IMG/VR virus record: IMGVR_UViG_2698536369_000023
Length of the DNA: 35,821 bases
From: a virus
Taxonomy: Duplodnaviria > Heunggongvirae > Uroviricota > Caudoviricetes
Reading direction: 5' to 3' (one strand)
Shown here: positions 17,048-21,698 of the stretch, piece by piece
Numbering within the stretch: position 1 is the stretch's first letter
Layout: the number at the start of each line of letters is the position of its first letter
The notes under the pieces: model-generated
Databases searched by the model: none
What the model saw: only the letters and a program-made list of their open reading frames with translations
What the model was told of the DNA's origin: nothing
Program-made: the position numbers and the translations under genes

Positions 17048-17926
17048 TTAAAGTAGTTTCCTATCTGCCGCCGCTCTGTGGCGTATAACCTTAGTAATAC
17101 TATAGCGTGGTTTAGACAGCGCGCCATTTGTTTCTTTTGTTGTTTCTGTCAGTTCTACAACAAAAAGATCACCCTTACAGAATGCTGCTTGGTTGTGTTC
17201 AACCCGTTCAAGAAAAGCCTCATCTTTCATAGATGCGCTAACTTCTTCGCCATTTGGCAGGATGATATCCCAGCTTTTGCCTTGCTTGAATCGAACATTA
17301 GCAAAATGTACATTAGCTTGGCGTGTCGTTACGTGCGTTTTCTCGACAAAGGTGGATTTTGCAGTTTTAAAACTTACTGCTTCAGCTTGCGTCACCCTGA
17401 CTACCTTATGCTTCTGCTGTGAAACTGAGAACGTGGATGGTTTTTCAGTCTGCAGGGGTTTATAGATTAATTTATCCAGTTCTTTTCGGATGATTGGACT
17501 GGTTATTAATTTTTGAATGTCGTTACTGCATTTAACCTTCTCACCATCCACTTCGATTTCTGCTGTATCTTTTTGTTCATCGACGACAATGGAGCTGATT
17601 TTACGCCCTTTGAGCCATTCGATTATCCCGAGTACGCCACCTGCGGCAACTCCACCACCTGCAACGAGGCCAAGGGCGTTAATAGTTTTTATGCTCCCCA
17701 TCACAGCAACAAGCAAAGTAAATGAACCTTCTTTTGTTGCCTTGATGTTGACTTTCGGCTCTGCTGTTTCGCCATTAATTATTTTTTCGGCGTGTTCAAT
17801 CAGGGCACTAAGAGAGGTTAAGGCTTCGCCTAATGTTTTCGCGTCGATCTGATTATCTGCGTATGCCTCTCCACCGTAGGCAATTTCGATTTCTGTTATT
17901 GGCATGTTTTCGAGTTGCTGCGTCAT
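17048..17926 (-). CDS. Unknown cassette protein A: about 292 aa with an internal glycine-zipper hydrophobic segment and a beta-rich-looking C-terminal half
   Basis: Start placed at ATG 17926 with AAAGGA N8 RBS (the track ORF begins at a GTG at 17959); segment GLVAGGGVAAGGVLGIIEWL; no recognisable family. Confidence 0.6.
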   Translation of the reverse strand: MTQQLENMPITEIEIAYGGEAYADNQIDAKTLGEALTSLSALIEHAEKIINGETAEPKVNIKATKEGSFTLLVAVMGSIKTINALGLVAGGGVAAGGVLGIIEWLKGRKISSIVVDEQKDTAEIEVDGEKVKCSNDIQKLITSPIIRKELDKLIYKPLQTEKPSTFSVSQQKHKVVRVTQAEAVSFKTAKSTFVEKTHVTTRQANVHFANVRFKQGKSWDIILPNGEEVSASMKDEAFLERVEHNQAAFCKGDLFVVELTETTKETNGALSKPRYSITKVIRHRAAADRKLL

Positions 17927-17971
17927 CAAAAGCATCCTTTGCGCAAGAGAAATAGCCACAGGATACAGATA

Positions 17972-18347: not shown

Positions 18348-18423
<76 letters not shown>

Positions 18424-18426
18424 TAT

Positions 18427-18501
<75 letters not shown>

Positions 18502-18792: not shown

Positions 18793-19008
18793 ATGAAATC
18801 CATGGACAAAATTTCAACGGGCATTGCCTACGGCACCTCCGCAGGCAGTGCTGGCTACTGGTTTTTACAGTGGCTTGATCAGGTCAGTCCGTCACAGTGG
18901 GCTGCGATTGGTGTACTGGGGAGTCTGGTTCTGGGCTTCCTGACTTATCTGACAAATCTGTACTTCAAAATCAGAGAAGACAAACGTAAGGCTGCACGGG
19001 GAGAGTAA
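18793..19008 (+). CDS. S: Class II pinholin (phage 21 S21-type) with dual-start motif
   Basis: 71 aa beginning [27 protein letters not shown]...; the two Met codons (M1, M4) fit the antiholin/holin dual start; GGAGGTGAGG RBS. Confidence 0.85.
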
Positions 19009-19012
19009 TTCA

Positions 19013-19231
19013 ATGACTCAAAAATATGAACTGATTGTGAAAGGGATCCGCAATTTTGAGAATAAAGTTACGGTAATCTTAACGTTACAGGACAACGAAC
19101 GTTTTGCCGGTGAAATTTTTGATCTGAACATCAACCTTGAGCGACTTGAAGGGGCTGGTTTGGATTATTATGAAGTTACTGCGGTAAAACATGCCAAACA
19201 GTTCTTGAGAGATTTGGCTGAAAAAATATAA
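19013..19231 (+). CDS. Hypothetical small protein inserted between holin and endolysin
   Basis: 72-aa ORF with GGGGAGAG N7 ATG RBS, 4 nt after the holin stop; AT-rich by eye; no family recognised. Confidence 0.55.
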   Translation: MTQKYELIVKGIRNFENKVTVILTLQDNERFAGEIFDLNINLERLEGAGLDYYEVTAVKHAKQFLRDLAEKI

Positions 19232-19255
19232 AGCGGCATTACTGCCGCTTAGAAA

Positions 19256-19552
19256 TTATTCAATGTCTGGTAGCTTATCAAAGATTTCAGATACTCTTAT
19301 ATTTGTCATATAAGCAAATTGAGATTCTGCCAGCTCTTTGGGTGATTTTCCCGCTTTTTCTGAGCCAAAAATTGTTTCTAAAGCCAGCATGTTATATTTG
19401 AGAACCTCTTCTCGAGTTTTACCTGATAATTTTGCGGTAACAGCAATATAAAAAGGCAACACTTTATCCAGAAGGTCGTTGTGTTTTGTCAGTTGTGGTA
19501 ATACCACATCAAGTTGCTTACTGATTGGTTTGAATGGATCTATACCGTTCAT
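19256..19552 (-). CDS. Hypothetical protein, convergent with the late operon (moron)
   Basis: 98-aa minus-strand ORF with AAGGGAA N7 ATG RBS; AT-rich by eye; no family recognised. Confidence 0.55.
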   Translation of the reverse strand: MNGIDPFKPISKQLDVVLPQLTKHNDLLDKVLPFYIAVTAKLSGKTREEVLKYNMLALETIFGSEKAGKSPKELAESQFAYMTNIRVSEIFDKLPDIE

Positions 19553-19679
19553 AGTTACATTCCCTTATCAGAGGTAATCAGCCATCCCCCCTTTATTACA
19601 CACGCCAGTATCCACCACTGACGGTCTGAGTGCTTAACATATCTAGAGATTAGAAACTGATAAATCCTGATAAATATCC

Positions 19680-20213
19680 ATGAATGCTAATATCAAATAC
19701 GGCCTGTCAGCAGCCGTTCTGGCGCTGATTGCTGCAGGCGCGTCTGCTCCTCAAATACTCGACCAGTTTCTGGACGAAAAAGAAGGTAACCACACAGCGG
19801 CATACCGCGATGGTTCCGGCATATGGACCATCTGTCGGGGGGCCACGGTGGTGGATGGAAAACCCGTTTTTCCCGGTATGAAACTGTCGAAGGAAAAATG
19901 CGCTCAGGTTAATGCCATTGAGCGTGATAAGGCGCTGGCATGGGTGGAGCGCAATATTAAAGTTCCACTGACCGAGCCACAGAAAGCCGGTATCGCATCA
20001 TTCTGTCCCTATAACATTGGCCCCGGTAAGTGTTTCCCGTCGACGTTTTATAAGCGGCTGAATGCCGGTGATCGTAAGGGTGCATGCGAGGCGATTCGCT
20101 GGTGGATAAAAGATGGTGGGCGCGATTGCCGCATACGTTCAAATAACTGCTATGGACAGGTTATTCGTCGTGACCAGGAAAGCGCATTAGCCTGTTGGGG
20201 GATAGATCAGTGA
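19680..20213 (+). CDS. R: SAR endolysin (T4-lysozyme-like muramidase, R21-type)
   Basis: N-terminal signal-anchor-release segment [15 protein letters not shown] followed by the E...D...T catalytic region ([20 protein letters not shown]). Confidence 0.85.
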
Positions 20214-20674
20214 GCAGAGTCGCCGCGATTATTTATGCTCTGGTTATCTGCATCATCGTCTGCCTGTCGTGGGCGGTCAATCATTACCGTGATAACGCCA
20301 TTGCCTACAAAGAACAGCGTGATAAAAAAGTCAGTGAGCTGAAGCAGGCGAACGCCACCATCGCTGACATGCAGCAGCGTCAGCGTGATGTTGCTGCGCT
20401 CGATGCAAAGTACTCGAGAGAATTAGCCAATGCGAAAGCTGAAAATGAAACTCTGCGCGCTGATGTTGCCGCTGGTCGTCGTCGGTTGCACATCAAAGCA
20501 GTCTGTCAGTCAGTGCGTGAAGCCACCACCGCCTCCGGCGTGGATAATGCAGTCTCCCCCCGACTGGCAGACACCGCTGAACGGGATTATTTCACCCTCA
20601 GAGAGCGGCTGATGACGATGCAGATGCAACTGGAAGGGGCACAGGAGTATATCCGCACTCAATGCATTAAGTAG
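20210..20674 (+). CDS. Rz: Spanin inner-membrane subunit Rz
   Basis: N-terminal TM segment then coiled-coil region resembling recalled RzpD; start chosen at GTG 20210 overlapping the endolysin stop (an in-frame ATG at 20195 is the alternative). Confidence 0.8.
20430..20612 (+). CDS. Rz1: Spanin outer-membrane lipoprotein subunit Rz1 (embedded in +1 frame within Rz)
   Basis: 60 aa with lipobox LVVVGC and proline-rich PPPPPAW segment; fully nested inside Rz. Confidence 0.85.
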
Positions 20675-20716: not shown

Positions 20717-21067
20717 ATGCCATCACGAATCCCACGCGCCTGCCGTAAGCGTGGATGTGCAGGTACAACCACAGACAGTTCTGGTTACTGCGATAAACAT
20801 CGTGGCGAAGGATGGGTACAGCATCAACGCGGACTGAGTCGCCACCAGCGTGGCTATGGCTCGAAATGGGATGCCATACGTGCGCGCATACTGAAGCGTG
20901 ATAATCATCTGTGTCAGAACTGCCTGCGCAATGGGAGAGCCGTTGAAGCCAGAACTGTGGACCACATCATTCCGAAAGCTCATGGTGGCACGGATGCAGA
21001 CAGTAACCTGCAGAGTCTGTGCTGGCTCTGCCATAAAGCAAAAACAGCGCGCGAACGCATCAATTGA
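20717..21067 (+). CDS. HNH homing endonuclease (terminase-associated)
   Basis: Cys pairs plus HNH core (DHIIPKAHGGTDADSNLQSLCWLCH); located directly upstream of the terminase small subunit. Confidence 0.8.
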   Translation: MPSRIPRACRKRGCAGTTTDSSGYCDKHRGEGWVQHQRGLSRHQRGYGSKWDAIRARILKRDNHLCQNCLRNGRAVEARTVDHIIPKAHGGTDADSNLQSLCWLCHKAKTARERIN

Positions 21068-21215: not shown

Positions 21216-21698
21216 ATGTCCGGACCCCCGAAAACCCCGCCACGCCTGCATTTGATACGAGGCAACCCCTCAAAGCGCCCCGTTAAAGACCCCAAAAAAA
21301 CCGCTAAAAAGGATGAAAAAGGTCTCCCTAAAATTCCGCAACATTTAGGGTCGCAGGGGAAGTACTGGTTCAGGCGAATGGCGGAAGAACTGAATGCGGA
21401 AGGGATCATTTCTCAGCTTGATGCGCGTGCACTCGAGTTACTGGTGGAAGCCTACACCGAATACCGGCATCACTGCGAAACACTTGATGCTGAGGGTTAT
21501 ACCTACCGCACGGAAACGCAGAACGGTGATGTGCTGATTAAGGCACACCCGGCTGCTGCGATGAAGGCGGATGCCTGGAAGCGGATCCGGGCGATGCTTG
21601 CAGAGTTTGGTATGTCACCGGCAAGCCGGGCCAAAGTAAATATTGCCGGACCGGATGATGTTGATCCGCTGGCGGAGCTTTTAAAAGCGAGAGACTGA
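21216..21698 (+). CDS. Terminase small subunit
   Basis: 160-aa basic N-terminus, directly upstream of and ATGA-overlapping the large terminase. Confidence 0.75.
   Translation: MSGPPKTPPRLHLIRGNPSKRPVKDPKKTAKKDEKGLPKIPQHLGSQGKYWFRRMAEELNAEGIISQLDARALELLVEAYTEYRHHCETLDAEGYTYRTETQNGDVLIKAHPAAAMKADAWKRIRAMLAEFGMSPASRAKVNIAGPDDVDPLAELLKARD

Follow-up and report, generated by a model that had tools for sequence, protein, structure and literature searches.

The window, by which we mean the whole stretch of 35,821 nucleotides that was analysed, belongs to an Escherichia coli prophage and carries a lysis cassette in which two small genes, here called X and Y, lie between the holin and endolysin genes. 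The features of this interval and its flanks are the following:

18793–19008, plus strand: phage-21-type holin S (Pfam PF04971 Phage_holin_2_1, 1.4e-35; PHROG holin)
19013–19231, plus strand: X, a 72-aa ORF, short-form DUF1327/YdfR (Pfam PF07041, 4.2e-27)
19221–19250, minus strand: terminator-like hairpin, with the stem at 19250–19231 and then the T-run TATATTTTTT
19256–19552, minus strand: Y, a 98-aa ORF antisense to the late operon (PHROG 25324 only)
19550–19632, minus strand: conserved structured leader of Y (covariance model R1)
19633–19679, minus strand: presumed Y promoter region, with a -10-like TATGTT at 19641–19636 and ATATCAGG conserved upstream
19680–20213, plus strand: endolysin R (Pfam Phage_lysozyme, 6.5e-24)
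20195–20674, plus strand: Rz (Pfam Phage_lysis, 3.9e-50)
20430–20612, plus strand: Rz1 (Pfam Rz1, 3.2e-19)

X starts 4 nt past the holin stop and is separated from the convergent Y by a gap of 24 nt that contains a GC hairpin. The ribosome-binding site of Y (AAGGGA) lies 8 nt 5' of its ATG, and 127 nt of non-coding DNA (19553–19679) separate Y from R. The GC content of 19013–19679 is 0.376 as against 0.50 in S, 0.52 in R and 0.50 in the window (S, R and Rz range from about 0.50 to 0.53), and that of Y taken by itself is 0.36 versus 0.52 in its flanks. The ORFs, their coordinates, the 4-nt spacing, the ribosome-binding site of Y and the low GC had all been pointed out in the original prediction, and all hold in the sequence. 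A T-run follows the 19231–19250 hairpin on the minus strand (TATATTTTTT) and is lacking on the plus strand; hence, this hairpin is oriented as a terminator for Y. Modules from Cronobacter and from locus L029 have a counterpart GC hairpin between Y and X. In phage Evi (L001 3338–3361) the stem is identical to that of the window, with the 4-nt loop inverted (GTAA in the window, TTAC in Evi).

The surroundings of the cassette show further features of their own. Just 5' of the holin are two tRNA genes (18348–18420 and 18427–18498, plus strand; Rfam tRNA, 73.8 and 64.9 bits), and phage 606R7 has three tRNAs at the matching position. Still further 5' of the tRNAs and the holin, a 303-aa ORF on the minus strand (17048–17959) lies in lower-GC DNA and matches both the PADLOC defence candidate PDC-S42 (3e-53) and the NCBIfam model "LAPAL motif-containing putative phage structural protein" (1e-66); it has the look of a further moron-like insert, located between the lysis genes and the Q region. 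On the other side, a Cys/His-rich 116-aa ORF (20717–21067, plus strand) is found between Rz and a 160-aa ORF (21216–21698), at the place that in 606R7 is taken by an annotated homing (HNH) endonuclease, with the gene for the small terminase subunit coming next.

Both X and Y are real genes under purifying selection, as both have homologues and dN/dS values well below 1: 0.19–0.43 for X, where dS is measurable, and 0.04–0.19 for Y, where dS is estimable, most Y pairs being saturated in dS. The original prediction held that neither gene had recognisable homology, which does not apply to X, a match to DUF1327/YdfR (4e-27). This match to PF07041 (94.6 bits, cut-off 25) covers profile positions 1–72 of 93, and X likewise matches the first ~70 positions of the longer profiles of several PHROGs without assigned function. 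It does not have the full-length DUF1327 architecture (core plus C-terminal tail, ~93–116 aa) and ends after the core helix. The AF2 model of X is a β-β-β-α structure (pLDDT 74), and an HMM search of PADLOC with X gave a single chance-level match (0.009).

The reference family for X is thus the YdfR/DUF1327 family, which includes ydfR of the K-12 Qin prophage, between essQ and rrrQ, and gp55 of mEp460. X occupies the same slot as ydfR, 4 nt past an S21-type holin and before the endolysin, and its first ~120 nt are near-identical to it. It differs from the usual 103–116-aa YdfR in lacking the 30–45-aa C-terminal tail, in having a C-terminal helix of the "module" type as in Cronobacter, and in being followed by a terminator and a convergent gene. 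A 104–116-aa "YdfR family protein" takes up this very S-R slot in related phages (vB_EcoM-606R7, mEp460), and mEp460 and 606R7 are among the phages annotated with the S-ydfR-R order. Of 5426 complete E. coli genomes, 2144 contain the first 128 nt of X, mostly annotated as YdfR or DUF1327, and about 100 phage records encode an X relative. With ydfR in ~40% of the complete E. coli genomes, the S-ydfR-R order is common, and the premise that S, R and Rz are normally contiguous therefore falls: a gene between S and R, namely ydfR, is normal in lysis cassettes of the 21/Qin type and hence not new. What is unusual in the interval is Y, which is rare (62 of the 5426 genomes).

Some biochemistry is available for the K-12 member of the family. 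A 2026 paper reports that YdfR interacts through residues 1–72 with RNase E, in its catalytic half, and with RNase G, that the Strep-tagged full-length protein co-purifies with RNA, and that over-production of YdfR affects the transcriptome little (PMC13232886). X corresponds to these residues 1–72, the reported RNase E-binding part (PMC13232886).

Y, on the other hand, belongs to a very small orphan family, with 16 clusters among 5.8e9 proteins and, in a profile search, six representatives among 1.84e9 proteins. Its homologues are all ~98–100 aa long with many invariant positions, and the full-length ones share 56–85% identity. Y is predicted to be soluble and acidic, and neither Y nor X has a predicted transmembrane or signal segment. 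The structure prediction that had been suggested as a check gave a confident four-helix AF2 model for Y (pLDDT 86). Searches of Pfam, NCBIfam and PADLOC with Y, and a profile search of PDB sequences with the Y alignment, returned nothing meaningful, fold searches of PDB and BFVD gave no informative match, and the sole PHROG match, 25324, is without an assigned function. Likewise, Y shows no sequence or fold similarity to any defence protein in PADLOC, NCBIfam, Pfam or PDB. The moron concept is reportedly that of Juhala et al. 2000, who, along with Casjens et al. 2005, are said to have described the morons of HK97, HK022 and ES18. Y has features of a moron: it is an extra gene that collinear relatives do not have, its base composition is deviant, and it ends in a terminator of its own. 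Along with this terminator, the low GC, a separate ribosome-binding site and the conservation of the region upstream support the view that Y is an independent moron-type unit. A scan of the minus strand for sigma-70 consensus sites found none; hence, we infer its promoter, and a conserved block with a -10-like TATGTT/TAAnGT is seen ~3–11 nt 5' of the leader motif in all lineages.

Comparison with phages that carry ydfR alone delineates the inserted DNA. DNA identity to them is high across S and the first ~120 nt of X, fades over the next ~90 nt of X, is then lost and resumes at 19664, 16 nt before the start of R; the shared stretch 19664–19679 is also the conserved plus-strand ribosome-binding-site region of R. 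The new segment accordingly runs from ~19130–19220, inside the ydfR-like gene, to 19663, and the novelty lies in Y with its terminator and the region upstream of it, together with the end of X. Y is absent from otherwise collinear phages. The exact block recurs in phage Evi, 96% identical over 1.8 kb, and in the 62 E. coli genomes mentioned above, where it and Y are chromosomal every time; among 50,697 phage records, Y is encoded in that of Evi alone. In alignments, X is chimeric, with the first ~40 codons near-identical to the resident E. coli ydfR and the remainder resembling the X of the Cronobacter module, a pattern that recombination inside a resident ydfR would account for. DNA homology between the window and Cronobacter extends from the promoter block through exactly the X start codon, and the mobile unit therefore comprises Y with its promoter, leader and terminator, plus X. 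Recombination within a resident ydfR seems to be the way by which this module came into the S-R slot of E. coli.

Homologues of Y occur in Cronobacter, Serratia, Escherichia sp., Buttiauxella, Yersinia and metagenomic contigs, span at least six genera and lie at diverse sites: at the junction of the tape-measure gene with M (H-M), at the M-L and I-J tail junctions, before holins, after an Rz remnant and in the S-R gap. Without exception they run antisense to the late genes. A small ORF on the late strand, ending 13–49 nt from the Y stop, accompanies Y in 22 of 23 distinct pairs, and the Y family nearly always travels with such a convergent partner. The partner is either a 71–73-aa DUF1327 protein or a 93–95-aa protein that we term type B; where DUF1327 is missing, another small late-strand gene holds the same position, 13–21 nt from Y. 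The exception (L044, 162–464) is a Y homologue followed directly by a tail-I-like gene, without a small partner. Profile-profile comparison of type B with DUF1327 does not show relatedness (global E 0.61; local E 0.09, with the last helix alone aligned). Among 36 pairs of the DUF1327 type, the identities of X and Y co-vary (r = 0.98), X diverging faster. Since tail and lysis operons harbour X-Y pairs at many different sites, X and Y move together as one unit, in agreement with the earlier suggestion of a coupled convergent pair.

The most strongly conserved part of the module is non-coding. In all Y lineages, conservation is much higher over the ~83 nt that precede the Y start than over the Y coding sequence, and this leader is strongly constrained whereas the synonymous sites of Y are saturated. 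A covariance model (R1) scores the leader of the window at 68.4 bits (E 9e-18) and finds no other copy in the window. From 5' to 3', the leader comprises TCAGCCCG, a variable hairpin and a 12–19-nt linker ending in GGAGGG, after which come ATGGCTGAT(T/C)ACCTCTG, the Shine-Dalgarno sequence (SD) and the ATG. Its elements in the window, all on the minus strand, are:

19629–19624, minus strand: 5' strand of P1, TCAGAC
19623–19603, minus strand: P2 hairpin, covarying
19583–19578, minus strand: 3' strand of P1, GGCTGA
19574–19570, minus strand: anti-SD-like CCTCT
19566–19561, minus strand: SD, AAGGGA
19552–19550, minus strand: Y start codon, ATG

The P2 hairpin is the best-supported of the helices. 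Across the alignment, 95.5% of its cells are paired and five of eight pairs show compensatory double changes (e.g. A-U in 21 versus C-G in 15); the observed covariation values were reached in none of 500 shuffles, and controls with a slid register collapse. A repeat with 63 distinct sequences, which is independent of Y as they were found via a different part of the leader, gave 96.9% pairing and again compensatory changes in five of eight pairs. The frequent G.U pairs in P2 place the fold on the Y-sense strand. The UCAGCC/GGCUGA pairing of P1 is invariant, with a C-to-A mismatch in the copy of the window, and since it never varies, covariation neither supports nor contradicts it; the P1 count was left out for the model-made alignment, in which the P1 columns are out of register. 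A pseudoknot helix P3 between GGAGG and CCUCU, 78% paired and with mostly one-sided changes, is a weak candidate. When folded as a single sequence, the leader of the window is no more stable than shuffled sequences (z = +0.56), so the evidence for structure rests on covariation rather than on folding energy. RNAalifold on the first MAFFT alignment missed P2 on account of misregister in that alignment. A search of 19550–19632 against Rfam gave no match even at E <= 10. Seven leader copies (L175, L193, L203, L214, L260, L266 and L273) are ~16 nt shorter, score 41–52 bits and have gaps over the P2 columns; these appear to be a variant without P2.

The leader also holds a mini-ORF, ATG GCT GAT TAC CTC TGA (MADYL*; 19585–19568, minus strand), which overlaps the invariant GGCTGA and CCTCT. 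We considered and rejected it as a conserved peptide: its start is GTG, CTG or ATA in some lineages, its length ranges from three to more than 12 codons, and the SD-like run stops 1 nt before its ATG. Given this variation in length and start codon, it is probably the RNA and not a peptide that is constrained. The motif GAUUACCUCUGA (19570–19581, minus strand) contains an invariant GAUYACCUCU, with the SD-like GGAGG on one side and the actual SD on the other. GAUYACCUCU resembles GAUCACCUCCUUA, the 3' end of 16S rRNA; its position suggests a switch that could sequester one SD or the other.

This leader is not confined to Y. Together with the conserved block just upstream, it precedes other genes in 147 instances in the loci examined, with 83 distinct cargos that fall into at least 19 unrelated families, mostly of 63–100 aa. 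The hits of a loose pattern scan were mostly chance matches and were filtered. An exact 18-mer of the leader occurs in more than 120 IMG/VR contigs among the matches listed. The leader is found before srb (gp23) of HK022 and gp25 of ES18, and also in mEp043, mEp213, HK633 and SPN3UB; the genes it precedes in these phages are annotated only as morons, possible morons or hypothetical proteins. Large ORFs flanking the leader cassettes are on the opposite strand in 484 cases versus the same strand in 122. Most cargos face a convergent small ORF on the late strand, which often overlaps the 3' end of the cargo. Many of the late-strand partners of different cargo families share the N-terminus MTLEQRVEALEK and have a variable C-terminus (L177, L181, L188, L207, L235, L264 and others). 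The ~40 nt upstream of the MTLEQRVEALEK start are conserved too, reading "MNRYHDKAERRE" in L025, L182, L184 and L186. With conserved flanks on both sides of a variable centre, homologous recombination could exchange the contents of the cassettes.

The closest architectural relatives of the X-Y pair are srb/gp22 of HK022 (L170, 2501–2918) and gp25/gp24 of ES18 (L171, 2001–2649), which have the same leader with its promoter, the same antisense placement in a late operon and the same convergent small partner. ES18 gp24, the partner of gp25, is itself a DUF1327 protein, 30% identical to X. Their cargo proteins, however, are unrelated to Y (no similarity was found between Y and ES18 gp25), and their cassettes are in tail operons, whereas the X-Y pair of the window is in the lysis cassette.

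Two characterized defence systems offer parallels in logic. In phi80, the defence gene TaiEcA, which acts by tail-assembly inhibition, is embedded in the Q operon in the opposite orientation; the lysogen expresses it constitutively, expression of Q lowers it, and next to it is a late-strand counter-defence gene, AtiEcA (PMC11364771). X-Y resembles this pair in having an opposite-strand gene embedded in a Q-controlled late operon beside a small late-strand gene, and by analogy could share its logic, whereby the lysogen is defended and an antidote is made in the lytic cycle. The two differ in that TaiEcA has 204 aa versus the 98 aa of Y, and the phi80 genes are divergent and overlapping while X and Y are convergent; BLASTP gave no alignment of Y with TaiEcA or X with AtiEcA at E <= 100. 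In the Pseudomonas phage JBD26, Tab is an 83-aa orphan moron in a late operon, with a late-expressed anti-Tab (PMC10884400). Y is similar to Tab as a very small orphan moron protein in a late operon with a late counter-protein, whereas the Tab/anti-Tab pair differs in its Pseudomonas host and in its site between the terminase genes.

We propose, with a probability of roughly 0.5, that X-Y is a mobile convergent moron cassette of the "noncontiguous operon" kind, in which Y would be a small factor for phage defence or exclusion and X the cognate, late-expressed protein that neutralises it, by analogy with the above systems. Y would be transcribed alone from a weak promoter, through the ~83-nt leader, and end at the 19250–19231 hairpin; it is thus probably made in the lysogen. 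X, lacking a promoter of its own, would be made only from the antiterminated late transcript S-X-(antisense Y)-R, and the same late read-through should also silence Y through collision or antisense pairing. Most likely, Y would then act against a late step of related phages, and X would neutralise it and so protect the prophage's own lytic cycle. We infer the timing of expression, the defence phenotype, the binding of X to Y and any sensing by the leader. Of the three functions put forward in the original prediction, the "exclusion moron" is the best. Several points count against our proposal: the searches above linked Y to no defence protein; the minus strand yielded no canonical sigma-70 promoter for Y; the Y homologue of L044 has no small partner; linkage alone would lead one to expect X and Y to diverge together; the occurrence of DUF1327 alone in ~40% of E. 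coli genomes argues for an X-type function independent of Y; and the RNase E binding of YdfR 1–72, with the co-purification of RNA, points to an RNA-related role rather than protein neutralisation (PMC13232886).

The main rival is that X and Y are functionally independent neighbours, which we regard as possible though not the likelier account. X would here be a resident ydfR-type late gene with a job such as RNase E or RNA binding late in infection, Y a lysogenic-conversion moron like bor or lom, and their linkage a product of hitch-hiking and recombination through the conserved 5' end of ydfR. The solitary ydfR genes in the 2144 genomes and ~100 phage records, the chimerism of the window X with the resident ydfR, the binding of YdfR 1–72 to the N-terminal domain of RNase E and to RNA (PMC13232886), and the many leader-driven cargos with non-DUF1327 neighbours are all in its favour. 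It is harder to reconcile with the retention of the pairing, despite divergence of X as well as Y, in at least six genera and at six or more points of insertion, with a shared DNA block that stops exactly at the X start codon, and with the substitution of DUF1327, where it is missing, by another small late-strand gene 13–21 nt from Y.

A broader reading, which we advance tentatively and consider rather doubtful, centres on the leader instead of on Y. The leader would be a new cis-regulatory RNA, built of the covarying hairpin, the invariant UCAGCC/GGCUGA pairing and GAUYACCUCU, and with the conserved late-strand flank it would form an exchange platform for dozens of small defence/antidote pairs carried by lambdoid prophages of Enterobacterales. 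DUF1327 proteins might in that case be late-phase factors that act on leader-bearing mRNAs and not on the Y protein.

The convergent-cassette proposal is to be set against two further functions that had been suggested for the pair. A toxin-antitoxin or addiction module of type I or II that stabilises the prophage is improbable. The pair is small and convergent, the convergent ORFs of related cassettes overlap at their 3' ends as in type I systems, and defence/counter-defence pairs are described as acting like addiction modules (PMC10884400); however, X and Y are not co-transcribed, neither a DNA-binding antitoxin fold nor any match to a toxin family emerged from Pfam, PADLOC or NCBIfam, the soluble and acidic Y is unlike a hydrophobic type I toxin, and the X-Y gap contains only the terminator. 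We consider a pair for lysis timing or another accessory role in lysis, antiholin-like or endolysin-regulating, similarly improbable: its appeal lies in the position inside the lysis cassette and the typical placement of DUF1327 genes between S and R, yet the same X-Y pairs also occur at a distance from lysis genes, within tail operons, both proteins lack membrane and signal segments, Y is encoded on the strand opposite to the lysis transcript, and no homology to known lysis accessory proteins or any lysis family was found in Pfam or PHROG. That one or both are chance ORFs of AT-rich spacer DNA, as their shortness, base composition and the lack of a Pfam family for Y might suggest, is ruled out by the full-length homologues of Y and its dN/dS, and sits ill with the confident AF2 model of Y and the score of X far above the Pfam threshold.

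Neither the S-ydfR-R arrangement nor the moron concept is new. The Y family, its pairing with a small late-strand partner and the leader that links at least 19 cargo families appear to be undescribed; for the leader sequence, DUF1327 and HK022 srb, we found no functional description in the literature, in a search whose coverage of subscription journals (the HK022 and ES18 genome papers) was thin, such that a prior mention is possible. A promoter and leader are thus common to at least 19 unrelated small genes, including those of well-studied phages such as HK022, ES18 and mEp043, and the leader is a candidate for a new regulatory RNA, one whose structure is clear and open to testing. Should the defence/antidote reading prove correct, the leader model would provide a sequence handle for many tiny anti-phage proteins and their cognate inhibitors, and ydfR, present and unexplained in ~40% of E. 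coli genomes, would gain a testable role.
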